From a virus (Duplodnaviria > Heunggongvirae > Uroviricota > Caudoviricetes): a DNA stretch of 14,363 nt. The stretch is from the IMG/VR virus record IMGVR_UViG_2681813233_000009; one strand, 5' to 3'. This document shows positions 108-14,106 of this stretch, piece after piece. How positions within the stretch are numbered: position 1 is the stretch's first letter; each line of letters starts with the position of its first letter. The notes under the pieces are model-generated. The model did not search any database, was not told the origin of the DNA, and worked only from the letters and a program-made list of their open reading frames with translations. Position numbers and translations under genes: made by a program.

Positions 108-1463
108 ATGGGACACAAAACCATACGCCACACCATTAAACGTAACGGAATCTATTACGTTCGCTTCCGTCTGCCTGATAACAAGTTTTTCCGTAAGTCT
201 TTAGAGACTGACAGCCACACCCAGGCGCAGTTGCTCATGTCTTTTGCTTCTCCTGTAATCCCTCTGGTTCAACGTGGAACCATTCACCCGGATCAGTTTT
301 GTCAACGTCTTTCTGATTTCAGCAACCGCTTAAAGCAACAGAATGAACACTGGCTGGTTCAACAATTTCTCAGTGATGAACGGCGCAATCTTCAGCCGAT
401 AGTTGTTCAGGAATACCGCGAGGTTGTTGCGCCTTCAGAAGATGAGGAAGAACAAACAGAAGCACAGTCAAAGGATGTGTTAACACTGGCTGGCGCTTGG
501 AATATGTACAAAAAGGAAAAAGCCCAAAACTGGACGAAGGCAATTTCACAGGCCAATGAGCGCTTTATGGAAGTCATGTTCATTGTCGTGGGTGCATCTA
601 AAGATGTAACCACGATTACCAAGCAAGACATTAAACAGGTAATGGAGGTTGTTGAAAACTTGCCTAAGCGTGTTGTACAGCCTTACCGTTCGATGACGGT
701 TCAGCAACTGATCGAGTGTGATGATGTTCCGCCTGAAGATTTGGTTGGCGCTGAGTCTATCCACAAGCATTTGAAGATTTACAAATCGTTGTTTAAAACC
801 TTCCTGACAGACAATAAAGATATTCTGGAGAAGTCTCCGACTGATGGAGTGGTCGCCTCACCATCTAAAGCAAGGTTTGGTGCATATAGCGCAGCAGAAA
901 TGAGAAAGTTTGTGGGGTGGGCGCTCAAGCAGCCTGACGGGTGGCAGAAGTGGATCACTTTGCTGTTGGCGTACACGGGAGCCAGAAGAGGGGAGATCGC
1001 CAAGCTGGAGAAATCACAGATCAAATTTGATGAAGATAGCCAGCGGCACTATCTCCTGATCGCGGAAGGAGGGCAGGGTAAAACCGAGAACGCTACAAGG
1101 CAGGTGGCGATCCATCCCAAACTCATCGAGTGGGGGTTCCTCGAATTTGTAAATCGCCAATGGAAAGAGAAAATCTTCTCGCCTGTGTCGGGTAAGAACA
1201 TGCCGAAGATCGGCAAAGTTTTAGCCGATGTCCGCGATCAGCTTGGTATTCCGTACCTTGATGATTATGGGCAGCGGCGGCTAGTTCACAGTTTCCGGCA
1301 TACCATGATTTCAACCTGTTTAGCAGGCTGGGTTGGTAATCTGGCACACCTGCAACAGGTGGTAGGCCATGAGAAAAGCGGTTCAGGGATCACTAGACGC
1401 TACCTACACACGTTCCCTTTATCAACGATCTGTTATGTGATTGATGGGTTGGGTTGGGAATAG
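108..1463 (+). CDS. int: Tyrosine site-specific integrase (phage integrase family), 451 aa
   Basis: ATG at 108 with GAGG 8 nt upstream; C-terminal catalytic motifs readable in the translation: ...TGARRGEIAKL... (Arg), HSFRHT (His-x-x-Arg), VGHEKSG (His), TRRYLH (Tyr nucleophile); sits next to the att repeat. Confidence 0.9.
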   Translation: MGHKTIRHTIKRNGIYYVRFRLPDNKFFRKSLETDSHTQAQLLMSFASPVIPLVQRGTIHPDQFCQRLSDFSNRLKQQNEHWLVQQFLSDERRNLQPIVVQEYREVVAPSEDEEEQTEAQSKDVLTLAGAWNMYKKEKAQNWTKAISQANERFMEVMFIVVGASKDVTTITKQDIKQVMEVVENLPKRVVQPYRSMTVQQLIECDDVPPEDLVGAESIHKHLKIYKSLFKTFLTDNKDILEKSPTDGVVASPSKARFGAYSAAEMRKFVGWALKQPDGWQKWITLLLAYTGARRGEIAKLEKSQIKFDEDSQRHYLLIAEGGQGKTENATRQVAIHPKLIEWGFLEFVNRQWKEKIFSPVSGKNMPKIGKVLADVRDQLGIPYLDDYGQRRLVHSFRHTMISTCLAGWVGNLAHLQQVVGHEKSGSGITRRYLHTFPLSTICYVIDGLGWE

Positions 1464-1523
1464 CTGTTTATTAATAAAAGAAAAGCATTAGAAATATTTC
1501 CTTTAGTAAGTTTTTGGGTATCA

Positions 1524-1544
1524 TTCGCCCCGTAATGGGGCGAA
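1524..1544. terminator. Hairpin between the convergent int and cargo genes (possible weak bidirectional terminator)
   Basis: 8-bp stem ttcgcccc/ggggcgaa (1524-1531 with 1537-1544), loop gtaat; no clear U-tract on either strand, so function is uncertain. Confidence 0.3.
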
Positions 1545-1555
1545 ATCAAAACTAG

Positions 1556-2578
1556 CTATTCGGAAGTGACTTGGCTTTGCTTTTTTATCGTTCTGGTTTT
1601 CAACATTTCAATCTGGCCAGCTTCGGTTAATGACCAGAAAGTATTCATGCTGCCATTGGTGGTTTTTAAATATTCAATTTTTATCAAACCATATGCCCTA
1701 AATTGCACTCCTATCGTTTTAAGGTCTTGAGAAGATACTTTTGCTGATGTGCCTCCCTTGCCTGCGACCTTTTGAGCGCTTTTGGCAATTGTGTATGATA
1801 CGCTTGATTCAGTATAATATTGAGTGAGATAGGGGGAGATTGAGTGAAAAATATCCTTCCATTTCATTTTCACGGACCAGTGTTTTGTTCCACCGGGATC
1901 ATACCCGATTCGAGGAAAGGTGGACTCACATCTAAATTCAAAATCATCATCAAAGTCAGCCAGATCCAGATCAAGTGTTTGACTAAGATTACTTGTGGCC
2001 TTGGCTAGTTCACTTTTTAACCATTCATTCTCTTTTTGTAAATCAACCATAGCCCGTAAATCAGTTTCAGAAGACGTTAGGTTGGCTCTTACCCATCCGA
2101 TTGCTGGATAAGTTTTCATCGTTTTACTCATACTTAAAGCAACCAACCCGGGTAAATCTTTGGCTGTTGCCCATGTTTTCCTGAGACGATTGGTTGAGGC
2201 CTTCTCTATAAATGCAGCTAGCTTCTCTCTGAGTTCAGAATCTTTTTCAGATTTGGCTAAAGGTAGATTTTCCGGATTCTCATGTACCAAAACAACGACG
2301 CGTAAACCTTTTGAAACTGCGTAATCGAATTCCTTTTCCGTGTAACTTAAACCATCTTCCGCGACAGAGCCATAACGACCACCAATGATCAGCAGATAAT
2401 AATCACAGTCATCAATTACTTTTTTTATGAACTCCCATTGGCCTTCATCGATTGCTGGGAACAACTCCATGCCTGCTGGAATGCAATCCATTTCCATCAG
2501 AGTTTGTATGACGTGTTTTCGTTCTTCTTCTAAATCCGTAAAAGTTGAACTTACGAAAACCTGGTAACGTTTATCCAT
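1556..2578 (-). CDS. Cargo protein, 340 aa, with N-terminal DUF4062-like motif ([16 protein letters not shown]); candidate defense or abortive-infection protein
   Basis: ATG at 2576-2578 (minus) with AAGGGA RBS; uninterrupted 340-codon ORF; visibly more AT-rich than neighbouring genes; N-terminal FVSSTF-DL-EER motif matches my recollection of the DUF4062 family; central coiled-coil-like segment ([28 protein letters not shown]). Domain assignment not verified by HMM. Confidence 0.8.
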
Positions 2579-2584
2579 TTTTAT

Positions 2585-2616
2585 CCCTTAAAAGAGGAAG
2601 GGGCATTAGCCCCTTC
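2585..2616 (-). terminator. Putative intrinsic terminator or attenuator between the small Cys-rich ORF and the cargo gene
   Basis: 8-bp GC-rich stem gaaggggc/gccccttc (2597-2604 with 2609-2616), loop atta; on the minus-strand RNA it is followed by CCUCUUUU, which overlaps the RBS of the downstream cargo gene. Confidence 0.4.
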
Positions 2617-2624
2617 ATTCAACA

Positions 2625-2891
2625 TTAACCAGCGTGACGGTAGGATTCACGCACACCATCACGATAACCATCAGCGAACGCTGCTTGAGGACTTTTGTGG
2701 CGAACGGTTCCCGCCTGGCTATCAGGTAAGGCGGCTAAGTCTACCCAAACCTGACCCGTGCGAGCCAAGCCAGCGCGGTAACCCTGATCGTAAGCGCAGC
2801 CGCAACATTTATGGCGACCTTCACCACCTTGATCGTGAGGTAAGCTGATGAAAAGAGTATTGTAACGGTGTGACTGTTTACAAATGGTCAT
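2625..2891 (-). CDS. Small Cys-rich hypothetical protein, 88 aa (MTICKQSHRYNTLFISLPHDQGGEGRHKCCGCAYDQGY...)
   Basis: Internal ATG at 2889-2891 (minus) preceded by a strong AAGGAG RBS at 6-nt spacing; the longer track ORF (to 3014) has no RBS. GC-richer than the adjacent cargo gene. No family recognised. Confidence 0.5.
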   Translation of the reverse strand: MTICKQSHRYNTLFISLPHDQGGEGRHKCCGCAYDQGYRAGLARTGQVWVDLAALPDSQAGTVRHKSPQAAFADGYRDGVRESYRHAG

Positions 2892-3571
2892 GCAATGCTC
2901 CTTATGAGCGTTCATTTTAAGGTTTACATGATCCTCTTTGCCTGGCACAATCAAGCCGTCAGAAATGAAGGCAAGGCTAAGATTCATACGAGTTTGGCGA
3001 CTCCTATTGGTCATGCTTTGTAAGCCGGGTTCGTGAAAATGAATCCGGTTTTTTTATGCCTAAAAATCAGGCATGGCACTACATGTGGGGGTGGTCAATC
3101 AATGGTGGCCCCACATAGACGATATTCTAGTGATGATTCTTTTCTGCACAAGGGTTGATTTTGACGTTAAATTGAGGTTGTGAAAGGGTAAAAATGCAAA
3201 ACCCTGCACAGCATAAGGCTTGGAAGACATGTCAATGATTAAGAAAAAAAAATCAAAATTTGATCGAGTGCTGATTTCTTCAACGGGAGGTCAGAATTGC
3301 GCGACATGATGTCGCGTAATCTTTATAAGAATAATGAATGGCATTAGTCGTTTTTGATGGTCTCTTGTAACATATAGTTAACATATAGATGTTCGTGAAG
3401 GGAGAAAGGCGCGAAAGGTAAATGTTATCTGGATAGTCTACCAATGCCTGTACCAGTACGAAAAGAGCGCTAATCATACCGAACTTAATCTCATAAAGGT
3501 TTTCACGAGAGCGAAGGACGTTAACGCTAGATTGCGAAACGAAACATTTCATTCTCTTCAATCTTTGGGTA

Positions 3572-3610
3572 ATAAAAAAGGCTGACCCGTTAAGGTCAGC
3601 CTTCTTAAAA
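3572..3610 (-). terminator. Rho-independent terminator ending the minus-strand capsid operon (bidirectional-looking)
   Basis: 8-bp stem ggctgacc/ggtcagcc (3580-3587 with 3594-3601), loop cgttaa; A-run 3572-3579 on plus (U-run after the stem on the minus RNA); ttctt follows on the plus strand. Confidence 0.6.
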
Positions 3611-3622
3611 TCAATGTGTTAC

Positions 3623-3811
3623 TTACTTCTTTTGACGCTGTTTAGCGATCATAACGTTAAGCGCGTATTCAAAACCGTGTTGCGATTCCAAACGGCTAAA
3701 CGTCACGTTACACAGGCCCAACTCTCTACACAGTGCTTTACGGTTTACGACCTCCGCCGCGCCAGATACATAGACTTGACCAGCGCCGGGGATATTGATT
3801 GAAACTTTCAT
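3623..3811 (-). CDS. Hypothetical small protein, 62 aa, last gene of the capsid operon
   Basis: ATG at 3809-3811 (minus) with GAGGTG upstream; co-directional with the capsid gene and followed by the terminator at 3572-3610. The overlapping plus-strand ORF 3614-3802 lacks this context. Confidence 0.45.
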   Translation of the reverse strand: MKVSINIPGAGQVYVSGAAEVVNRKALCRELGLCNVTFSRLESQHGFEYALNVMIAKQRQKK

Positions 3812-3903
3812 GTGTCACCTCAAAAATAAAAGTAAAAATGAATATAACCGGAAGAGATAACCCCCAGCCGATACCCAAAGGGCGCGACCGGGGGCATTCT
3901 CTA

Positions 3904-4923
3904 TTACTTCAGCTTGACGTTCAGCATGTAGTTCGGGCGCAGGTTCAGAGGAATGAAGCTCGCCTCTTGGTGAACGGTCACCATGCCGTAACGGTCAGTC
4001 ATTACTTTTTGGTAGTAAGGGCTGATCACACCTTTAGCGGAGATATCCTGATTACGTGAAGCCGGGCCGCGTACCAGTTTGAACGGGTTACGATCCGCTG
4101 CACTGAACTTTGGAACGAACAGGCCGGAACCTGCCGCGATTTCGTAGCGGTCATCGTCCGCCAGAATGAAAGTAATGTTGCCAATGCTGAAGGAGTCATA
4201 ACCCGCAGTGTTAACCGGGATCAGAGCGCCTTTTGCAGCCTCCGCCACTTTGTTGGTGATCAGGCTGGTTACTTCTGGGTGGCTCGCCAGAACGTCATAC
4301 AGATCCGGGGAGCAGAAGCAATAGAAGCGGTCCAGATAGGAGCGGCTCGCGCCGTACTCTTTAACCAACATGCGGCGAATCTTCGCAAGCTGTGCATAGA
4401 CGTTAGCGCCTGCTGAACCGTCGAGGTCGAAACTCAGCGGAGCAGTACCAAACACAGCGTTAAAATCTACGTCGCCGTCATCCGTTTTAGCCGCTTTCGC
4501 TTCCTGCTTGAACAGGGCGCGGGCCAGTGTGCTTTCAACTGTTTCCAGATGATAGTTACGCATACGGATAGCTTTATCAGCAATAACAGATGTGATCGCC
4601 TGAGCCTGATCCGGGTTAGCCGGGCTTACCAGGCCTTGCCAGTCAGCGGTTTTTACATCCGCCTCAGTGGCATAGTGTGGGATCTCCTGGTTACGCAGGA
4701 TGGTTTTATCCATCATGATCGCGTTAACTTCGGTGCCATAGCGGGCAACCTGCTCCAGTTCACTAACCTGAGTTTCCACAATATCCACAATCTGGGCGTT
4801 TGGAGTGGTTGAGTTAACATCGGAGAAGATACCCAGATCAGAGATCAGGTAATTACCTGCTGGTTGATCTTTGATCGCCGCTACAGTGTCCAGCTTTTCA
4901 AACTGTTTAAAATCAATAGCCAT
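3904..4923 (-). CDS. Putative phage major capsid protein, 339 aa (family not verified)
   Basis: ATG at 4921-4923 (minus), AGGAA RBS; starts 12 bp after the stop of the upstream small gene (small-gene/capsid-gene arrangement as in lambda D-E); A/D/S/T-rich composition typical of virion proteins. Capsid assignment is by context and gestalt, not by alignment. Confidence 0.6.
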   Translation of the reverse strand: MAIDFKQFEKLDTVAAIKDQPAGNYLISDLGIFSDVNSTTPNAQIVDIVETQVSELEQVARYGTEVNAIMMDKTILRNQEIPHYATEADVKTADWQGLVSPANPDQAQAITSVIADKAIRMRNYHLETVESTLARALFKQEAKAAKTDDGDVDFNAVFGTAPLSFDLDGSAGANVYAQLAKIRRMLVKEYGASRSYLDRFYCFCSPDLYDVLASHPEVTSLITNKVAEAAKGALIPVNTAGYDSFSIGNITFILADDDRYEIAAGSGLFVPKFSAADRNPFKLVRGPASRNQDISAKGVISPYYQKVMTDRYGMVTVHQEASFIPLNLRPNYMLNVKLK

Positions 4924-4935
4924 TGTGTGATTTCC

Positions 4936-5307
4936 TTATGCTTTGAAGTAATCGGCGTTGATAGCCAGGCGAATATCACCGGAGGCTGTCAGCGCTTCCA
5001 GTGCGGCTTTTTTGCTCGCGGCGTCTTTAGCACGTAGGGCAAAATCGGTAATCACAACATGGCGATCCACGATAACCAGCGTTTTAGTCTTGCCATCGGC
5101 GGACATATTGGAAAGGTTAATGATCGGCTTGCCAGCTTCAGCGGCGGCGGAGTCGAACAGGGCAAAAGTTTTGCTGTCCAGAATATCGCCACAGTAGACG
5201 TCAGCCGGGAGGCTTGGGGCGGTTACTTCGGTGCGGTCAAACAGGCTGGAGGCGTAGTTGACGATTACGTCACCTTGCGTTACCGGGTAGCGCTCGGAAG
5301 TTTTCAT
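4936..5307 (-). CDS. Putative head decoration or capsid-associated protein, 123 aa
   Basis: ATG at 5305-5307 (minus) with AAGGAAAA RBS; the track ORF extends to 5451 but lacks an RBS there; tightly coupled (12 bp) to the downstream capsid gene. Confidence 0.5.
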   Translation of the reverse strand: MKTSERYPVTQGDVIVNYASSLFDRTEVTAPSLPADVYCGDILDSKTFALFDSAAAEAGKPIINLSNMSADGKTKTLVIVDRHVVITDFALRAKDAASKKAALEALTASGDIRLAINADYFKA

Positions 5308-5437
5308 AAAGGTTTTCCTTATGGAGGGTTTTAGACGTGGAGAGAGTCCACAGGATGATCCGGCGTTGCACCGAATATAAGGACCGCCACAGAGGACAAT
5401 CCGAATTGTTGGAAGATGGGAGGCCGTGGATTGAATA

Positions 5438-5467
5438 GAAGAGGGCGGCATCCGCGCCGCCCTTTCT
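5438..5467 (-). terminator. GC hairpin with flanking U-rich tracts upstream of the capsid operon (possible leader terminator)
   Basis: 7-bp stem gggcggc/gccgccc (5443-5449 with 5456-5462), loop atccgc; tttct follows on plus, and tcttctatt follows on the minus RNA; lies about 135 bp upstream of the decoration-gene start. Confidence 0.4.
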
Positions 5468-6551
5468 AATCTGGCTCTCTCTCACCCTCGCGGGTGGGGA
5501 AGGATATTTATCCTTTTGTGTGGATACTTGCCGCCCCTGGTGGCGTCACGTCGAATAGCACCAACCTTTTGGCAAATACCCACAAAAAAGAACCCGGCTG
5601 GAGGAACCGGGGTGGACAATGTAACTTACTGTATGATCACTTGTTTTCCTGTGTAGCCTCAGAGCCTTACATGATTTGCTTTCATGGTTCAGCAAAGAAG
5701 CCACAGAGGAAAACGGGCACCCTGAACGCGCCCGGAAACCATCGACGCAAATCAATAGTTTATCGTTGAGACCAGGTAACCAGCCCGGCCCAACTGTGAC
5801 CCCGTGGAGGGTCGATACAATTGAAGGAGATTCGCTTGTATTCTGAAGAGCCGCAGTTAGCGACGCTTTAGAATAGGGCCTGTGGCGCAAGCACTATGAT
5901 TAGAGGCGTTTTGAATCGTAGGAGTGAAACAATCGGCGGAACTTGAGGAGAGGACCGCACACAAAGCATTCTGGCAAGTGGAGTTGAAAGAACACTTTGG
6001 GTGAGGGCCGGGGCGGGGGAGAAGCCGCCCGGCTCACTCAGTACAGATCCTAATTGCACACGTTGCGACTCTGTACAGGTGGGGGGCGTGACAAGCTGCA
6101 AAACGGTAATTTCGATATCCTCGCCACACCCCACACCATGTATATTAGTTTAACACGAATGATTATCATTTGCAATAAAAATTAATTGCATTGTGTTGAG
6201 TCTTATGATATTGGCGGCCACACACGTGACGGATCAGATCTGCATTAATTTTTATTAGTGAGTGGTCTGACTCAGGGAGGGCTATGTGTCCCAAAAGACA
6301 CACGAAGTAATAATAGATATATAAGACCTCGCTACGCTCGCCCTCCGGGTCCGTCTTATTGATCTTATATAATAACTTCATTCAATAACTAATTGTTTTC
6401 ACAATTAATCATTTCATTCGTTATTATATGATCTTAAAACCTTCTCGCCCTTTGGGCTTACCAGGTTTTAGGCCGGGGCCTATTTCCCCACAATGTAGAG
6501 TCTCGCCTGTGTGGCTCATCTCCCGGGGGGCATTTTGAAACAAGGGTGTAC

Positions 6552-6612
6552 TGACAAAATGTCACAACGTGTTATGACAGATTGGCACAACGTGTTATGA
6601 CAAAATGTCACA
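6552..6612. promoter_or_regulatory. Cluster of dyad-symmetric repeats (operator- or iteron-like)
   Basis: 17-mer cacaacgtgttatgaca occurs twice (6563-6579 and 6586-6602), 6 bp apart; 15-mer tgacaaaatgtcaca occurs twice (6552-6566 and 6598-6612); each unit is itself a near-palindrome (TGACA-aaa-TGTCA; TGTCAcAACG/tGTTaTGACA). Confidence 0.5.
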
Positions 6613-7052
6613 TAATAAGATAAGTATATAAAACACCCTTAAAAGACAAACACCTAGGGCCAGGTCAAGATCTTAAAGAGATTGAGGGTGAATTATTGAT
6701 TGAACAATCAAGAGATCAGACTCTTTAGGAAAGAGCCTTACAGGCTCGCCTCCCTTTTGGGGCAATCGCAGAAACAGAAACCGCAACGCGGTTTTCTTTT
6801 CTGCTCTTTGGGAACACCGGAACGATGTGAAGGTGACATCTGGGCGGCGGGGTGGGGTGCCCGGCGCGGAGTGATACACAGTACAGAACCACAACCCACA
6901 GGAACCAACCTAAACGCGCCTCTGTGGCGCTCTCTCATATGCAGACACGGAAACACCTTATAAACACCCTGCGCCTCACTGAGAGCGTTACAGCGGCTTT
7001 CTATGCCTCTAGCACAATAAACAACTGAGCGCAAGATAAATCAAGAAAGTTG

Positions 7053-7081
7053 TTGCGAATCATTGTCAAATAGTGTAAAAT
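7053..7081 (+). promoter_or_regulatory. Candidate sigma70 promoter for the plus-strand operon
   Basis: TTGCGA (7053-7058), 17-bp spacer, TAAAAT (7076-7081), about 75 bp upstream of the ATG at 7156. Read by eye only. Confidence 0.3.
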
Positions 7082-7155
7082 AGATACTGTGATGAGGTAT
7101 TTATTCGAATATATAGATCCCCATCATACTATAACAAACATGAAAGGAGATTGCA

Positions 7156-7581
7156 ATGAGTATTTACCTCGATGTTGAAAAAATGGTTGAACGTGTCGAT
7201 CAGCGTGACCTGACCCGTAAGACCCTGACAGAAACCCGTAGCCGAATGAAAGCCGCCGGACGTATGGGAGAAGTTGAAGCGATTACGCAGGCCCTTGAAA
7301 TGACCAAATCAAAAGCATCCGGCGTCATGCGACAGTCTCAACGTATCGCTGCAAAGATCACCGAGATGGACGCAGAGAAAGCACTTGAAGTTAAAGCAGC
7401 CGTTTCGCTGTTCGCTTCCAAGTCTACAGACATGCAAGCCTCCATTGTGCTGGCGTTCCAATCCCTCTTTGAGGCTAAAGGCGTCCCGATGGAATACGAC
7501 GAAGTGATGGCTTTTATCATGCTGCAAGCGGCGGATCAGTTTGAGCGTATCACCGGAGAGTTGCCCGTTATCGTTCACTAA
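7156..7581 (+). CDS. Hypothetical protein, 141 aa
   Basis: ATG with AAAGGAGA RBS; first gene of a co-directional, tightly packed gene string; no family recognised. Confidence 0.7.
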   Translation: MSIYLDVEKMVERVDQRDLTRKTLTETRSRMKAAGRMGEVEAITQALEMTKSKASGVMRQSQRIAAKITEMDAEKALEVKAAVSLFASKSTDMQASIVLAFQSLFEAKGVPMEYDEVMAFIMLQAADQFERITGELPVIVH

Positions 7582-7610
7582 TTATTCATTTACTTTTTGG
7601 AGAGGAAACA

Positions 7611-7862
7611 ATGAGCAAATATCAGCCGTATGTTGATTTGAGTGATTCCCCTGTGTTGTCGGCGTATGCACAGCAGACGATCAACCAGTTGGACCCAACC
7701 CTGTACGATGACATTTACGAAATGTTGAAGCAGGTTAGTCCCTCCAAGTTGGTGACGATTGGCAACCCGGCGATCACCGCCCCGGCGTCATGGTGGGGTG
7801 ATTGGTTCGGCCTCAACCTCACCGCTGAAGACATCGCAGAATTACAGGAGATTGATCTCTAA
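7611..7862 (+). CDS. Hypothetical protein, 83 aa
   Basis: ATG at 7611 with GGAGAGGA RBS; its stop overlaps the next start (TAATG). Confidence 0.65.
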   Translation: MSKYQPYVDLSDSPVLSAYAQQTINQLDPTLYDDIYEMLKQVSPSKLVTIGNPAITAPASWWGDWFGLNLTAEDIAELQEIDL

Positions 7863-8041
7863 TGCAGATTGAATTTTCCCCCGAAGTGGCGGATCAGCTT
7901 TTTGAGTTGGCCCGCACAAGGAAGCACGGCTCCGCCTACGCAATCGTAAGAAAAGCAGTTAAGCAGTATTTGGATTCAGTTGAAGCTATTAACCCTGTTG
8001 AAGAGGATTTAACCCATGACCGCAGCACCCGCAGCAAGTAA
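7862..8041 (+). CDS. Small ribbon-helix-helix-like DNA-binding protein, 59 aa (absent from the ORF track)
   Basis: ATG at 7862-7864 overlapping the upstream stop (TAATG); translation MQIEFSPEVADQLFELARTRKHGSAYAIVRKAVKQYLDSVEAINPVEEDLTHDRSTRSK has an RHH-like strand-helix-Gly-helix pattern; overlaps the next gene by 26 nt in another frame. Confidence 0.5.
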   Translation: MQIEFSPEVADQLFELARTRKHGSAYAIVRKAVKQYLDSVEAINPVEEDLTHDRSTRSK

Positions 8042-8681
8042 GCCGTTTACCGCAATCCCGCATGACCTTGCGGACATTGAACAGATCAGCGGTAAGGCGT
8101 TTACCATGAACATGGTTTACACCTACAGCCTGATCAAATCCTTCCAGGACAATGGGCAAACGGCTTATTTCTCACAGGAGCTTTTGGCCCGTCGCCTGGG
8201 GGCATCCATCCGCAGCGTGATCCGCCTCCTGGCGGAGATGGTGGAAATGGGATTGATCAATAGTACCGGGCGCGTGGGTGGCAAGACCTGCCATTACACA
8301 GTTAACCCGATCACCCCGGAAATGGTGGGAACCCCTGAAGCCGCCAAACCTGAAGTAACCAAACCAACCGCAGCACCCCAACCCGTGGAGACCGTAGAGA
8401 ATGCAGGAAGTAACCAGCCTGGAATTGTTAAGTGTGGATCTGAAAGCGTACATAGAAGCCGCCCGGCGTCGTCTGGAGTTGCTCCTGTGGACCACAGCGG
8501 GGGCGCTGTTCGTCCCGCTCCTGTCCCTGTGCCAGTAGAGCAGGGGGCCGCAAACGATGATTTACGTAACCCTGTTATTAATTATGTGGCTGGCTCTAAT
8601 GTGATGATGGTCAACGGTTTGCCTGTTGAATATCTGGAGCCAGAAGAAAGCGGCATTGATCAGTTTGGTGATGCCTTCTAA
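8016..8681 (+). CDS. Putative winged-helix DNA-binding protein, 221 aa (replication initiator or regulator candidate)
   Basis: ATG with GAGGA upstream; HTH/winged-helix-like segment FSQELLARRLGASIRSVIRLLAEMVEMGLINSTGRVGG; Pro/Ala-rich linker and acidic C-terminal tail (EPEESGIDQFGDAF). Confidence 0.7.
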   Translation: MTAAPAASKPFTAIPHDLADIEQISGKAFTMNMVYTYSLIKSFQDNGQTAYFSQELLARRLGASIRSVIRLLAEMVEMGLINSTGRVGGKTCHYTVNPITPEMVGTPEAAKPEVTKPTAAPQPVETVENAGSNQPGIVKCGSESVHRSRPASSGVAPVDHSGGAVRPAPVPVPVEQGAANDDLRNPVINYVAGSNVMMVNGLPVEYLEPEESGIDQFGDAF

Positions 8682-8757
8682 AAATCTGCGATTGATTTCC
8701 CACTAATAACACTCTACACAAAACCCCCGCCGTTTACAACCCTTTGGAGATTCTCGC

Positions 8758-9324
8758 ATGAATAACTTTATCACTACTAAATTCAACGCCTTAACCTCCG
8801 AAGAGGAAGCCGCAGTAAATGCACTGGCGGAGAAATTAGCAGCAAACAAGCCCCGTCGGATTATGGATGAGAGCCATTTGACCCCGGATCAAATCCTGAA
8901 GATCAAGCGGGCCTGTATTCAGGGCCACAGCGCTAAAGCCATCCAAGCGGCCTTTAACGTGTCGCTGGCTTACGTCCTGAGAGTAAAGCGCTCCCACAAC
9001 CCTAAGAAGTACCAGAAGACCCCGCTCACCTTGCCAGAAAAGGCAGTGTTGGCCCAGCAGATGGACGCCGATAATTTGAGCTTGGATAAAATGGCGGAAC
9101 TTCTGGGGATCAACAGTAAGATGGTTTCCCTACTTCTTACCCAACCTTCACCCCGTTACCTGGTGGAGCAAATGCTCCCGTATGACCAAGTTTTACAGAA
9201 CCTCCGCAGCGCCCGCTACGTGGAAAGCCCTGTATACAAAAAAGGGACGAGTATGCGCCGTGTGCGACTGATCGTTTCTGAAGCTCGTCAGCAGGCCCGC
9301 CAGGCAATCATTAAATCCCGGTAA
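8758..9324 (+). CDS. Putative HTH-containing protein, 188 aa
   Basis: ATG with GGAGA RBS 8 nt upstream; two HTH-like segments (LTPDQILKIKRACIQGHSAKAIQAAFNVSLAYVLRVK; LSLDKMAELLGINSKMVSLLL). Function unverified. Confidence 0.65.
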   Translation: MNNFITTKFNALTSEEEAAVNALAEKLAANKPRRIMDESHLTPDQILKIKRACIQGHSAKAIQAAFNVSLAYVLRVKRSHNPKKYQKTPLTLPEKAVLAQQMDADNLSLDKMAELLGINSKMVSLLLTQPSPRYLVEQMLPYDQVLQNLRSARYVESPVYKKGTSMRRVRLIVSEARQQARQAIIKSR

Positions 9325-9495
9325 TTATGTCCAACCCAACGGAATGGGACCTAAAGGATTACTTAGGTTCCAAACTGGTTAAGCGTCAGACAAGACTCTC
9401 TAACTTTCTCGCCCCCTTCCTCTATATCCCCTTTAAGCCCGCTTCCCTCCTCCTGTGGGTAGTGGTAATCACTTTCATTATAAGGACTCTCTCAA

Positions 9496-9870
9496 ATGCA
9501 CCCCTTTGAACTACTGAAACGCCAGCTTGACGAAATGGCGAAATCCCGCCAGGTAGAGCAGGCCCAAGAGGAAGCCGCCGCCCGTGAACTCCGCAAGGCA
9601 CAGGCCGATCTCTCCCTGGACGAGGCTATTGCTCTGTACGGTACACAGTTGGAAGCCTCCACCGATGCAGCAGACAGCGCCCAGAAGGGCCGCGCCATTA
9701 AGAGCCGGGGAATTGCTCTGTGTCACAAGGATCAGGGATTCAGCGCCAACGGTCGCCCTGTGTCTCTCCTGACCAAATCAGCAGATCTGCCAGCAGGTCA
9801 CCGCCGGGTAATCATCAACAAAGCAGCAGGGCGCACCCTGAAGGCTATCAATCTGGAAGGGGCTGAATAA
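9496..9870 (+). CDS. Hypothetical protein, 124 aa, translationally coupled to the tape-measure-like gene
   Basis: ATG at 9496 with AAGGA RBS; its stop overlaps the next ATG (TAATG at 9868-9872). Confidence 0.6.
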   Translation: MHPFELLKRQLDEMAKSRQVEQAQEEAAARELRKAQADLSLDEAIALYGTQLEASTDAADSAQKGRAIKSRGIALCHKDQGFSANGRPVSLLTKSADLPAGHRRVIINKAAGRTLKAINLEGAE

Positions 9871-11990
9871 TGAGCGGTAACGTCATCATCACGAAGACCG
9901 TAAACAGAACTACGTTCACCACGGACGGGGCCAGCTATAAGAAGACGGTTGACCGTATCAAACAGGTGGGGAAAGAGTGGGATAAAGTCTCCTCTAAAAT
10001 GAAGCCTCTACGGATGAAATTTGAGGAAAACGCCTACACCAAGATCCGCCGGAAACAGCAGGACGCCACCGCAAAAGCAGCACTGGCAGAAGCCAAAGCC
10101 AAAGCCGCAGCGGAAGCCAAAGCGGCAAAAGCCCAACTAGCAGCGGAGCGTAAACTCCAGACAATCCGCGCTAAAGCTATTCGCTTTAATACCGCAGCGG
10201 CTAACGCCAACGTTACCCCGGCCCAACGTGCTGGACACCTCCAGGAGTTTGGACAGCTTACGCGCCAGTATCACGCCGGGTCTATGGCATTACAGGAATA
10301 TAACGCCCGTGTGTCACGCCTTCAGCAAACCATGCGCCAACAAGGCCGGGTAGGCATGAGGGGAGCCACAATTCCCGTAACCGCCAAAGTAAACAAACTG
10401 GATACCTCCATGATCGAGGGTGCAGGCGGGGCGATCACAATTGCCGCCACTGTGGCACTCTCCGGCAAGATCATGACTACCGGACAGGATTTTGAATCCG
10501 CTATGTCTGGTCTTACAGCGATCACCGGTTCCACAGAAAAAGCCGGGAAAGAGTTTGATTATCTTCGTGAACAGTCCAACCGTCTGGGGCTGGACCTTCT
10601 GAAAACTTCAAAAGACTATACGCAGTTTGCCGCCGCTGTTGGGGACAAACTCCCTAAAGACCAGATGCGATCCATCTTTGAGGGTGCTTCAGAGTGGGGC
10701 CTTGTTACTGGTGCATCCGCAGATGAGCAATCACGTGCGTTAAAGGCCCTTAACCAGATGATGTCTAAGGGTACGGTCATGAGTGAAGAACTTAAAGGCC
10801 AGTTGTCCGAGGCTCTCCCCGGCTCTGTGGGTCTGTTCGTTAAAGCCCTTAACGACATGAAAGGCGTTACCAACCTGACCGAGCAAGATTTGTTTAAGCT
10901 GATGGAAGACGGGAAGCTGTTCTCTAAGGACATCCTCCCACATGTGGCTAAACAGATGAAGGAAGCGGCCCGGCAGGGTGGCGCACTTGATAAGGCGATG
11001 AAGTCCAACCGGGCATCATGGCAGCGCCTCAATACCAGTATGCAGAACGCTATGAATGTGTTTTTCACTTCTGGCTTCGGTAACTCCCTTACCAACGCTT
11101 TCGACTCAATCAGCGCCGCTATTGACGGATCTGGTGGAGCCTTTGAGATGTTCGGGCATATCGCCGGGAAAATCGTTGAAGGTGCCACAGATGCGTTTAC
11201 AGAGTTGCATGACACTGTGATCCTGACCTTCCGCATTATTGAGTATTACGCCGCCAAAATGGGGATCAGTGGGGAGCAGCTCAAAGCCTGGGGAGAAATG
11301 GCAGCATATGCCGCCGGGGTGGCTCTGTTCGCTGGCTCTGTTTACAAGTTGGGCGGGGCTTTCAAGTGGGTCCTCACCATGCTGAACCCTCTTACCAAGT
11401 TGTTGGGAGTCATGAAGGGGATCGCCGCTATTGGTGGCATTGAGGCCGCTTCTGAAGCTCTGAGCGACGGTAAGCCAGGTAAAGACGGCCAGCCGGGCAA
11501 ACCGGGAACCCCATCAAAGAACACCAAGCCGATCGGCGCGGGCCGTGGCGTTAACTTTGGCCTCCCGGCTATTATCGCCGCTGTATCTCTGAATGACCGC
11601 CTTGATCAGATTCAGGCAGACCCGGAAGCGTTTAAGCGAAAGGTACAGGAGAATAATGATCGGCCTACGCTGTGGACTGACATCATGGAAGCATTCTCCG
11701 GCAGTTGGTACGAAAAGCAGCAGAACGCAAACCAGCAGGCAGCACAGACCGCAGCACTCGATCAGACTGTTCGTGTTGCTGTTCCAACCTTCATCCCTCC
11801 AACCACAGCGACGGTTACAGGTGGCTACGGTAATCCACTGATGACGCCGCCAGCGTGGCTAAACCAGCCGCTAAACGTGAGCGTTAATGTGAAGGTGCAA
11901 GATGGACAGGTGAAAAACCTTGTGCAATCTGAGATTGAACGTAATGAACAGGCGGCATTTAACATGCTGATGCAGGGCGGGCCAAACTAA
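9870..11990 (+). CDS. Phage tail tape-measure-like protein, 706 aa
   Basis: N-terminal Ala/Lys-rich coiled-coil (AKAALAEAKAKAAAEAKAAKAQLAAERKL); central segment LKGQLSEALPGSVGLFVKALNDMKGVTNLTEQDLFKLMEDGKLFSKDILPHVAKQMKEAAR resembles the conserved tape-measure motif as I recall it; hydrophobic Gly/Ala-rich segments; collagen-like GKPGKDGQPGKPGTP; followed by a terminator. Confidence 0.8.
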   Translation: MSGNVIITKTVNRTTFTTDGASYKKTVDRIKQVGKEWDKVSSKMKPLRMKFEENAYTKIRRKQQDATAKAALAEAKAKAAAEAKAAKAQLAAERKLQTIRAKAIRFNTAAANANVTPAQRAGHLQEFGQLTRQYHAGSMALQEYNARVSRLQQTMRQQGRVGMRGATIPVTAKVNKLDTSMIEGAGGAITIAATVALSGKIMTTGQDFESAMSGLTAITGSTEKAGKEFDYLREQSNRLGLDLLKTSKDYTQFAAAVGDKLPKDQMRSIFEGASEWGLVTGASADEQSRALKALNQMMSKGTVMSEELKGQLSEALPGSVGLFVKALNDMKGVTNLTEQDLFKLMEDGKLFSKDILPHVAKQMKEAARQGGALDKAMKSNRASWQRLNTSMQNAMNVFFTSGFGNSLTNAFDSISAAIDGSGGAFEMFGHIAGKIVEGATDAFTELHDTVILTFRIIEYYAAKMGISGEQLKAWGEMAAYAAGVALFAGSVYKLGGAFKWVLTMLNPLTKLLGVMKGIAAIGGIEAASEALSDGKPGKDGQPGKPGTPSKNTKPIGAGRGVNFGLPAIIAAVSLNDRLDQIQADPEAFKRKVQENNDRPTLWTDIMEAFSGSWYEKQQNANQQAAQTAALDQTVRVAVPTFIPPTTATVTGGYGNPLMTPPAWLNQPLNVSVNVKVQDGQVKNLVQSEIERNEQAAFNMLMQGGPN

Positions 11991-12004
11991 CCGCCAATAT
12001 AATA

Positions 12005-12031
12005 AAGGCTCCCCTAGTGGGAGCCTTTTCT
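12005..12031 (+). terminator. Rho-independent terminator after the tape-measure-like gene
   Basis: 7-bp stem ggctccc/gggagcc (12006-12012 with 12018-12024), loop ctagt, followed by ttttctctttt. Confidence 0.6.
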
Positions 12032-12060
12032 CTTTTATACATTTCTAATGTCCTGGCTTT

Positions 12061-12627
12061 TCATAACAGATCCGCTATTGAATATTTATCACTAAAATCA
12101 TCTACTTTGCGTTGTGTGGCCCCAATGTAATGAAGCGTACTGGATAACGATTTGTGCCCTAATGCTTTACTAATTACAGCTATATCCTCCCCATTGTCAT
12201 AACCAATCGTTGGTTTACTCTTCCTCATGCTGTGGGTCGAAAGATTCAGCCCCAGCTTTTCCCCGGCGTAGCTAATTTCCTCATGCAATTTGGAGCGGCT
12301 CACAGGTTTTCCCTTGCTCCTGTGGCTGTCCAACTGTAAGAGGTACACATTATCAGGGTTAGCCTCTCTCCGGGCCGCTATGATGCGTTTAGCGGTATCG
12401 GTAAGCCTCACCCGGACAGATTCACCCGTTTTCTGTTGGGACAGGACAAGGTGATCGCCTTTGATGTCGGCATAACGGATAGAGCGCAGATCCGACACCC
12501 TCAGCATTAATTCATAACCCAATAACCAGGCGTCACGGTACAGCGTCAGCCCCTTGCCCTGTTTGAGTAGCTCAACTGCTACCGCTTTCACTTCCTGAAC
12601 TGATTTACAGCCCTCTACGAAATTCAT
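12061..12627 (-). CDS. Small tyrosine recombinase, catalytic domain only (FimB/FimE-sized), 188 aa
   Basis: ATG at 12625-12627 (minus) with GGAGAG RBS; the track ORF begins at an upstream TTG without an RBS; motifs LRVSDLRSIRYADI (Arg), HSMRKS (His-x-x-Arg), LGHKSLSSTLHY (His and Tyr). Confidence 0.8.
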   Translation of the reverse strand: MNFVEGCKSVQEVKAVAVELLKQGKGLTLYRDAWLLGYELMLRVSDLRSIRYADIKGDHLVLSQQKTGESVRVRLTDTAKRIIAARREANPDNVYLLQLDSHRSKGKPVSRSKLHEEISYAGEKLGLNLSTHSMRKSKPTIGYDNGEDIAVISKALGHKSLSSTLHYIGATQRKVDDFSDKYSIADLL

Positions 12628-13020
12628 TCTGTACTCTCCAGAACCTAACTGTGATAAATTTTTGATCAAAAACAAGCACTTGTAAACGACAAAAATTATT
12701 AATTTTAAGTTGTGTCTTTTTAGTGAATTAAATCGGGTTTAATCGCGTTTAATGGCAGAGTAATGACCCGGCAGGGGAGGTAATGGGCTGTTTATGTGGG
12801 TAAAAGATGGTTGCTTAATGTACTATTACCACAAGACGGGTAAGGTGATTTGACTCCCTCAGTTCCTTTAAGCTACTGTATTTATGGGAAATTAATTATT
12901 GTTTCTTTATGGTGTTGCCTGGCAAATTTTCAGTTTACCCTCAAGAAAAATCCCCATCTTTTTTATTCTCCACATGAGAATAAATTTTGTTTGCAAATAT
13001 CACTCATTCTCAACTCCAGT

Positions 13021-13832: not shown

Positions 13833-13981
13833 GTGCCTGCCATTTATCTGTGGGTCACAACGTGAGACACAAACTGGGACACAGAGGATTTTTTAGGGTT
13901 GAGTCTTTGGCTTCCCGCTGGCATGATCCAGAACAGGGATTAACGGGACGTTAATCGCAAGCTTTTGATTTTGTTTTATTT

Positions 13982-14106
13982 GACTCGGGGTGCCCTTCTG
14001 CGTGAAGGCTGAGAAATACCCGTATCACCTGATCTGGATAATGCCAGCGTAGGGAAGTCACGGACCACCAGGTCATTGCTTCTTCACGTTATGGCAGGAG
14101 CAAACT
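13982..14106 (+). promoter_or_regulatory. TPP (THI-box) riboswitch of thiM: aptamer plus expression platform
   Basis: Sequence gactcggggtgcccttctgcgtgaaggctgagaaatacccgtatcacctgatctggataatgccagcgtagggaag matches the E. coli thiM TPP aptamer as I recall it (including the conserved CUGAGA element); it runs into the thiM RBS (aggag at 14096-14100). Confidence 0.9.
14033..14052. repeat. attR-side copy of att core, lying inside the TPP aptamer
   Basis: Identical to positions 1-20. Confidence 0.7.

Follow-up and report, generated by a model that had tools for sequence, protein, structure and literature searches.

A conserved non-coding region with a strand-specific structured RNA and a probable replication origin in a satellite-like element of Escherichia coli

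In the immunity region of P4, transcription from the P_LE promoter terminates prematurely within a long, untranslated and structured leader that silences the operon, and the regulatory CI RNA is derived from the same leader. In phage lambda, late control relies on the promoter P_R', the terminator t_R' and antitermination by Q, while in HK022 the put sites act through folded leader RNA that itself confers the override. For PLE, elements of Vibrio cholerae that resemble phage-inducible chromosomal islands and whose helper is the lytic myovirus ICP1, a region of about 3 kb free of open reading frames (ORFs) has been described between a leftward gene cluster and the origin plus rightward clusters, with the origin in the right quarter and transcribed leaders 5' of both clusters (PMC7567579). 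Three iterons of semi-palindromic form make up the PLE origin, and this origin and RepA vary jointly, as modules that can be exchanged (PMC8263062). Here an integrated element is considered that lies in a stretch of 14,363 nucleotides (nt) (IMG/VR record IMGVR_UViG_2681813233_000009; the window, to which all positions refer unless another genome is named). The window is Escherichia coli chromosome, and by gene content the element looks like an integrated phage satellite. Between its leftward capsid operon and its rightward operon lies a gap of 1,848 nt (5308-7155), which we read, with a confidence slightly above even, as the cis-acting control region of an integrated phage satellite with a PLE-like layout.

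PLE appears to offer the closest known layout, and the comparison concerns layout only, not PLE membership. The two share an integrase, a leftward cluster, a multi-kilobase ORF-free region with an origin (probable here) towards the right, rightward clusters that include an initiator, an origin of three iterons that covaries with the initiator (putatively so here), untranslated leaders ahead of both clusters (predicted here), and a large lytic myovirus as helper (a candidate in the present case). The E. coli element differs in having a tyrosine recombinase as integrase and its own major capsid, decoration-like and tape-measure proteins; moreover, its initiator is lambda-O/DnaD-like by PHROG, and the likeness was judged from gene order and the make-up of the origin. 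To our knowledge, no report on PLE describes a strand-specific structured RNA of about 830 nt that carries three terminator-like sites in tandem.

The gap is non-coding but conserved. A first-pass annotation of the window had noticed it and had found no credible coding sequence in it, which was borne out, although its start had been placed at 5452; the 171-amino-acid (aa) ORF at 4936-5451 is over-extended, and the true gene covers 4936-5307 (123 aa). The gap was set to begin at 5308 because the annotation of the relatives gives 123 aa, tblastn alignments start at that methionine, and 5308-5451 holds covarying hairpins. Decayed genes, which had been offered as one explanation, and hidden genes were rejected. 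The longest stop-free stretches measure 100-120 aa, as against 112 +/- 24 aa in shuffled sequence, and the variable alignment columns show no 3-base periodicity (p = 0.3-0.9; p = 2e-24 for the capsid gene used as control). No match was found by Pfam among the five longest ORFs of the gap or by PHROGs in its six-frame, stop-masked translation, a small-ORF conservation scan showed that in the leader described below no short ORF preceded by a ribosome-binding site is kept among relatives, and ARAGORN found no tRNA or tmRNA. The NCBI Prokaryotic Genome Annotation Pipeline leaves the gap blank in all four E. coli relatives whose annotation was inspected. Relatives (loci cited below by L numbers) were drawn from E. 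coli genomes, one IMG/VR contig, metagenome contigs and Kosakonia. Among them, indels are not multiples of three and ORF lengths vary widely; gap length stays within 1.74-2.02 kb in the 12 relatives with complete copies (E. coli and metagenomes). Nucleotide identity in the gap is 0.87-0.89, compared with 0.88-0.92 in the capsid gene, and in L006, whose capsid protein is 42% identical, gap segments are still about 80% identical in DNA. The GC content, reported earlier as not low, is indeed 0.42-0.54 on average, but falls to 21-22% at 6376-6436 and 6610-6650. All the motifs listed by the first-pass annotation are present, namely the 5443-5462 hairpin, the 6471-6480 palindrome (more exactly 6470-6481), the one at 6916-6930, the gtacaga/tctgtac repeat and the 6552-6612 dyads; two points had escaped it, the assignment of the left half, as a putative leader, to the capsid operon, and the sharing of part of the gap with Certrevirus phages. 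The gap is best described not as one object but as a mosaic of at least five functional pieces, a point that had likewise been overlooked.

The best supported and most novel of these pieces is a highly folded RNA of about 830 nt on the minus strand (5308-6140), which would be the leader of the decoration-like/capsid operon, or a non-coding RNA (ncRNA) if it ends at one of the terminator-like sites described below. The minus-strand RNA from 6140 to 5308 has a minimum free energy of -319 kcal/mol (z = -8.1), whereas the plus strand gives z = -2.4; in five relatives the corresponding values are -6.6 to -12.7 and -2.5 to -4.2. The consensus (alifold) energy is -156 for the minus and -127 for the plus strand, and in helices common to both strands 13 wobble cells are of the minus type and four of the plus type. 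The minus consensus, built on nine distinct sequences, contains 198 pairs, and 94% of its cells are paired; both sides have changed in 46 pairs, as against 21.5 +/- 3.1 in shuffles (none of 500 reaches 46) and 8-13 in slid controls, and the covariation score is 0.228, compared with 0.05-0.07 in controls. Stems are kept while loops and paired bases change, for instance GGATATTTATCC vs GAGGTGTAAACCTC or AAAG/CTTT vs TGTG/CACA, and the GTACAGA/TCTGTAC repeat near 6042-6075 is helix 6 of the alignment named A5, conserved in nine sequences. The structure of 5308-6140 is that of an RNA, we conclude, because the folding excess is strand-specific, where a DNA-level feature would be symmetric. Within it, domain R1 (5466-5628, minus strand) comprises the terminator-like hairpin T2, a long helix whose 5' arm is the U-run of T2, and two small covarying hairpins. 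A covariance model of R1 scores 115-167 bits in relatives, including L008 from Kosakonia, and 10-22 bits on the opposite strand; it has no match in the distant capsid-carrying elements (L005, L010-L013) or in phage CR8, and no homology of the leader to CR8 was found by blastn, nhmmer or covariance model. A permissive Rfam 15 cmscan (E <= 1) of the whole window returned only the thiM thiamine pyrophosphate (TPP) riboswitch and a weak HrrF match, with nothing in 5308-7155. The RNA is a well-supported candidate for a new large structured RNA family absent from Rfam. The possibility of a structured RNA, raised at first pass together with a search of Rfam and of alignments for compensatory changes, is thus upheld for 5308-6140 on the minus strand: the Rfam search gave no family, and the compensatory changes exceed both shuffled and slid controls.

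The predicted start of this RNA, near 6140, follows a sigma-70-type promoter, P_L (6147-6175, minus strand), with a -35 TTGCAA at 6175-6170, a 17-nt spacer and a -10 TAAACT at 6152-6147. All eight aligned elements, among them L005 and L012 with capsids only 23-24% identical to that of the window, retain its hexamers and the 17-nt distance between them, and its 46-nt core shows 91% identity in 24 other E. coli genomes. The -35 is overlapped by a palindrome, TGCAAT-N8-ATTGCA (6171-6190), a putative operator that is kept in the window, L001, L017 and L015 and has a partial inverted copy at 6241-6256. A terminator scan gave eight sites in 2 kb, with 2.1 +/- 1.4 expected, and six of the eight are on the minus strand. 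Three lie in tandem within the RNA. T1 is a GC hairpin at 5714-5734 followed by UUUUCC at 5713-5708; its stem covaries, GGGCGC/GUGCCC in the window against GGCGUG/CACGCC in L006, L007 and L015 (alignment columns 519-547). T2 (5593-5611), the strongest, is followed by the run UUCUUUUUUG at 5592-5583; the U-run is invariant in 13 sequences, and the stem is kept while the loop varies. T3 is the hairpin GGGCGGCATCCGCGCCGCCC at 5443-5462, with compensatory stems (helix 22) GGGCGGC/GCCGCCC, GGCCAGC/GCUGGCC and GGUCCAU/AUGGACC and a better U-run in L006 and L015. It is the same hairpin that had been noted at first pass; the hairpin is real, but it does not lie at the end of an operon, being placed inside the putative leader, upstream of the minus-strand capsid operon. 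In L005, too, P_L is followed by terminator-like hairpins ahead of capsid genes. The order of promoter, terminator-like hairpins and co-oriented genes, with the operon starting at 5307, fits a terminator-gated leader. A single leader across the whole gap, from a minus-strand promoter near 7128-7156, was also considered and rejected; the extended -10 of the window is not kept in relatives there.

As a separate observation, the P_L spacer (6155-6173, minus strand) holds ATGATAATCATT, the core of the Fur-box consensus; against the consensus GATAATGATAATCATTATC the site matches at 14 of 19 positions with a 13-nt perfect core, a likeness that is suggestive to the eye but does not rise above chance, since 25% of shuffled windows reach at least 14 of 19. 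L017 and L019 carry TGATAATCATTCTCA (L017 4323-4347), which by eye scores 13 of 14 for the Fur 7-1-7 form, and phage CR8 has three similar Fur-like boxes, at 90772, 91880 and 94038, in an ORF-poor stretch (90.7-94.6 kb).

The centre of the gap (6283-6650) is probably the replication origin of the element, a reading drawn from sequence and from analogy with known origins, because a change in its repeats goes along with a change in the recognition helix of the initiator. Three dyad repeats of the form TGACAnnnTGkCA, 23 bp apart (6546-6618), are putative iterons for the lambda-O-like initiator encoded at 8016-8681; Tandem Repeats Finder reports them at 6552-6612 (period 23, 2.7 copies, score 101), and a repeat finder places the copies at 6552, 6575 and 6598. 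The iteron of the window, TGACAAAATGTCA, is presumably the binding site of that initiator. At the same position relatives carry other dyads, GGAAATATTTTCC, GGTCAnATTGACC, GTAAAGAAATCAGAC and AGGCAAAATCTGCCT, and the five dyad classes correspond to five classes of the predicted recognition helix; L021 and L006 share both dyad and helix (TDRxVRNLLRDM), although the L021 protein is otherwise closer to that of the window. AT-rich tracts flank the iteron cluster on both sides: a candidate DNA-unwinding element with 21% GC at 6376-6436, and a second tract with 22% GC at 6610-6650, which adjoins the iterons and contains CAATAAGAyTAT..ATAAA, conserved in relatives. Searches of solved structures and NCBIfam with the initiator and its neighbours were uninformative. 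An origin had been among the functions suggested at first pass, and the iterons that covary with the initiator helix, the AT-rich tracts and the helper-phage-like element described next point the same way.

Part of this central region is homologous to phage DNA. The stretch 6283-6375 (plus strand) corresponds to an intergenic element of Certrevirus phages and comprises a hairpin at 6286-6301, GACACACGAAGTAATAATAGA at 6297-6317, the hairpin m1 at 6323-6357 and a TATAAT-like tail. When phage genomes were searched by blastn, 24 records were returned, all with Vequintavirinae/Certrevirus-type names and all matching window positions 6277-6427; the phages are myoviruses of about 150 kb, those inspected belong to the genus Certrevirus, and they include CR3, CR8, CR9, PBES 02 and phages of Pectobacterium, Enterobacter and Klebsiella. 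The element, 80-130 nt long, was seen only in phage records of the Certrevirus type, twice per genome. In CR8, where identity is 88.6% over 79 nt, nhmmer finds it only at 138923-138791 (E 1e-23) and 75359-75473 (E 6e-14); both copies are intergenic, point in the direction of the next gene and lead into very AT-rich DNA, and the copy at 138.8 kb coincides with the minimum of cumulative GC skew and with a site where transcription diverges. Seven phage copies and the satellites all carry a 30-nt core, CCTCGCTACGCTCGCCC-TCCGGGCTACGG, without change, and the stem around it shows three covarying forms (AAACC/GGTTT, AGACC/GGTCT and ACACC/GGTGT). Further right, at 6436-6522, lie the hairpin m2 (6436-6469), a second, shortened phage-like copy that is a full copy of the phage core in L006, L007 and L015, the GC palindrome aGGCCGGGGCCt (6470-6481) and the hairpin m3 (6498-6522). 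The stems of the m2-m3 region covary, e.g. GCCC/GGGC vs GGCC/GGCC, and 12 pairs are changed on both sides at 6436-6522, as against four or fewer in slid controls. The motif CTCGCC-N(3-12)-GGC occurs three times, always here or at 6745, with 0.88 expected per window.

A link to the same phages is seen in the proteins. The best phage relatives of the tape-measure homolog are Certrevirus tape-measure proteins (37-38% identity, E 1e-52 to 1e-54), and in CR8 the decoration and capsid genes follow one another in the same order, with a full-length capsid alignment at 19% identity. On these similarities, the helper of the satellite is most likely a lytic myovirus of the Certrevirus type, and the tape-measure homology suggests that the satellite may alter the tail length of its helper. 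CR8 (L027/L028) also has ORF-free stretches of its own, of 0.5-1.5 kb, at 80.5-81.5, 91.7-92.2 and 93.1-94.6 kb, which by analogy may hold ncRNAs, as reported for ICP1.

In the right part of the gap, three covarying hairpins occupy 6674-6804 (plus strand), at 6674-6727, at 6733-6763 (m4) and at 6768-6804, the last being long, terminator-like and followed by UCUUU. Changes on both sides affect 14 pairs on the plus strand, as against at most four in slid controls; folding z is alike on both strands, so that the strand assignment is weak. They are followed by a conserved unstructured block (6830-7050; column identity 0.64-0.82), in which folding z is about 0 on both strands in six relatives and covariation does not exceed controls. 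The block contains the GC palindrome GCGCCTCTGTGGCGC at 6916-6930 and is possibly a packaging or regulator-binding site. The rightward operon promoter, P_R (7053-7081, plus strand), has TTGCGA, a 17-nt spacer and TAAAAT, and its -35, spacing and -10 are kept in all nine aligned relatives; dyads in its 5' untranslated region (7088-7155) differ by lineage.

Taken together, these pieces can be arranged in a model. It builds on what was observed, namely conservation, the absence of coding, RNA structure on one strand with covariation, kept promoters, homology to phage DNA and iterons that change with the recognition helix, whereas transcription, termination with its override, origin activity and the identity of the helper are inferred. 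Leftward transcription from P_L would produce the folded RNA of about 830 nt with T1, T2 and T3 in tandem, and in the resting state most transcripts would stop at these sites, so that expression of the decoration-like, capsid and cargo genes would depend on an override of termination, by a factor supplied by the satellite or by the helper. The centre (6283-6650) would serve as the origin, with iterons bound by the lambda-O-like initiator of the element, and the right end, with its further hairpins and conserved unstructured block, would hold the promoter P_R and the operators of the replication and tape-measure operon.

Several observations weigh against this model. Covariation was measured on nine sequences, from whose alignment the structure itself had been derived. 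P_L, T1-T3 and read-through are predicted features. In T1 and T2 the U-run doubles as the 5' arm of a long conserved helix (A5 helices 14 and 18), so the hairpin-plus-U pattern could be a structural by-product. There is no leader peptide, as judged by conserved short ORFs with a ribosome-binding site, no Q/N-type family among the neighbouring proteins in Pfam and PHROGs, and no RfaH ops element. For the origin, the correlation of iteron and helix comes from few independent lineages, and L018, the sole sharer of the iterons of the window, is cut before the initiator gene; transcription direction is a confounder of the GC skew in CR8, and the phage-like element could, instead of being part of an origin, serve as a promoter or terminator or encode a small RNA. 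As to the helper, the best phage matches of the capsid protein are Pakpunavirus-like (about 24%), not Certrevirus, and the only phage records of the phage-like element come from Certrevirus phages that infect Cronobacter, Pectobacterium, Enterobacter, Klebsiella and Pantoea, none being from an E. coli phage.

The same evidence can be read in other ways. The left RNA may be a free-standing, trans-acting ncRNA of about 400-700 nt that ends at T1, T2 or T3 and has helper or satellite targets, for which it is a decoy, a scaffold or an antisense regulator, in which case the capsid operon would have its own helper-activated promoter 3' of T3. We hold this to be unlikely, though it deserves to be weighed: large structured ncRNAs typically show such a folding excess and covariation, T2, about 550 nt from the predicted start, has the canonical form of a strong terminator, the 135 nt from T3 to the start codon are highly conserved with two further hairpins, and there is precedent in an ncRNA of about 800 nt in phage ICP1 and in ncRNAs of PLE (PMC7567579). 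Nevertheless, no sigma-70-like promoter was found at 5443-5308, the RNA has no significant complementarity or homology to phage CR8, and its short matches to 6830-7050, examined as an antisense test, are enriched in direct and inverted orientation alike, without covariation. Moreover, in every relative the RNA is immediately 5' of, and co-oriented with, the capsid operon. A more ambitious proposal retains the leader position and is held just as tentatively: the RNA of about 830 nt would be a new class of ncRNA, from an undescribed satellite family that makes its own capsid and tape-measure proteins, and would be more than a passive leader, either sensing helper infection, through terminators bypassed only by helper-modified RNA polymerase, or acting in trans on helper or satellite assembly, while the helper hairpin element would have been borrowed so that helper machinery replicates or transcribes the satellite.

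Less probable again is that the region acts solely as DNA, as an origin, a packaging site or arrays of protein sites, the inverted repeats being DNA hairpins or dyads and any RNA incidental. That description suits the centre and right parts, which fold about equally on both strands, the iterons and operators, which are clearly DNA sites, and the 30-nt core of the phage-like element, invariant as for a sequence-specific protein site; it does not suit 5308-6140, where each of the six sequences tested shows a strongly strand-specific folding excess, many conserved G-U pairs would turn into A-C mismatches if read from the opposite strand, and the hairpin-plus-U-run sites occur on one strand only. 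Decayed or unrecognised small protein genes are highly improbable. A few relatives do have longer frames (205 aa in L017 and a stop-free 171 aa in L006), but the L017 frame is of low complexity and corresponds to the non-coding frame of the window, and the shuffle-level frames, lack of codon periodicity, blank Pfam and PHROGs searches, frame-breaking indels and varying ORF lengths given above all speak against genes.

A cis-acting control region of this kind can be set beside other described systems. Similarly to the P4 leader, the present one is long and structured and carries terminators that would keep an operon silent; however, the P4 leader controls a replication operon and this one capsid genes, and where the 69-nt processed CI RNA of P4 pairs with seqA and seqB, no conserved covarying trans-pairing sites were found here. 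The CI RNA has been cited as a precedent for pairing between an ncRNA and a leader (PMC7567579). By gene content the element is not P4-like: Pfam, PHROG and NCBIfam scans of the tested proteins found no P4-type genes (psu, delta, sid or alpha), and the Rfam scan no CI RNA. A capsid-forming phage-inducible chromosomal island was excluded, as the element has no full head module (portal, protease, terminase, connectors). The putative origin resembles lambdoid origins in its several dyads with an A/T centre beside an AT-rich tract, in the O-like initiator, and in that, from lineage to lineage, the sites and the part of the initiator that binds DNA vary in step. It differs in that the lambda origin lies inside the O gene and this one 1.4 kb upstream in non-coding DNA, and in its three repeats at 23-bp spacing, instead of four, with binding that is putative here. 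With lambda late control and HK022 the putative capsid-operon leader shares a constitutive-looking promoter followed by terminators ahead of structural genes, whose expression would need terminator override, but no Q-like protein or qut/put-like element was identified here, and the leader is four times longer, with three terminators. Finally, the RNA recalls GOLLD, ROOL and the ICP1 ncRNA of about 800 nt in its size, its heavy conserved structure and its occurrence in mobile viral elements; unlike GOLLD and ROOL, both included in the Rfam scan, it has no Rfam match at E <= 1, and it is tied in position and orientation to one operon.

The integrated element measures about 12.5 kb (108-12700) and is sited between rcnR and thiM, with a thiM flank 98.6% identical to E. 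coli. The thiM TPP riboswitch (13976-14072, plus strand; Rfam, 74.8 bits) is an ordinary host feature and marks the right chromosomal flank. A tyrosine integrase (108-1463) is followed by the leftward block, with a cargo gene (DUF4062), two small ORFs, the major capsid gene of the lambda-gpE type (3904-4923) and the small decoration-like gene (4936-5307, minus strand; 123 aa, with AAGGA 5' of the ATG). The HrrF match (3574-3661, minus strand; E 0.071) amounts in essence to a strong intrinsic terminator, AAGGCUGACC...GGUCAGCCUUUUUU, immediately 3' of the capsid gene. The rightward operon encodes small proteins, the lambda-O-like initiator (8016-8681, plus strand; PHROG 391/270/428, 'replication initiation', E 4e-7 to 2e-6; Pfam HTH_36), a DNA-binding protein and the 706-aa tape-measure homolog (9870-11990, plus strand; PHROG 5255, E 3e-104). 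The capsid, decoration-like and tape-measure proteins are the only structural products of the element, which has no portal, terminase or tail genes. Within 12061-13000, a small second recombinase of the tyrosine type (204 aa, FimB/FimE size; Pfam Phage_integrase, E 1.5e-16) adjoins a stretch of about 35% GC, and this region may be an invertible switch or a resolution site. The cargo slot between integrase and capsid gene (1556-3561, minus strand) varies among relatives, holding the DUF4062 protein and two small ORFs in the window and an 'ATP-dependent nuclease' in others (L001/L002 4683-6133), and it looks like an anti-phage defence hotspot.

The element is rare: the gap was matched in 10 of 5,426 complete E. 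coli genomes, seven of which carry most of it. An alignment-based scan of genome contigs gave only six loci, a single capsid query confirmed none, and a search of plasmids found no match. Several E. coli copies are broken by insertion sequences (IS903B, IS911, IS4; e.g. L002 3264-4232 and 11292-11759), and one lacks the C-terminal end of the initiator and everything 3' of it, so that some copies are decaying. L008, from Kosakonia arachidis, is a deletion variant (5264-5619) in which only the R1 domain (115 bits) and the T3 region are left, between the initiator gene and the decoration-like gene and with a degraded T2 stem. L005 (E. coli 2016C-3878) and L012 (Enterobacter asburiae) represent a second family of capsid-carrying elements with rearranged gene order; despite capsids 23-24% identical to that of the window, they share the P_L core almost exactly. 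In the literature covered, which is incomplete, we found no published account of an element of this type, with its own capsid, decoration-like and tape-measure genes, and no satellite of Certrevirus or Vequintavirinae phages was described there.

Satellites of large lytic phages have been worked out mainly for PLE and ICP1 in Vibrio, and most of the PLE non-coding region is unexplained; the E. coli element offers the same layout arising from different parts, in 1.85 kb that are currently unannotated in every genome carrying it. It bears on whether a long folded leader with tandem terminators silences satellite capsid genes until the helper arrives, on whether satellites copy cis elements of their helpers, and on whether origin and initiator modules swap under phage pressure, as in PLE.

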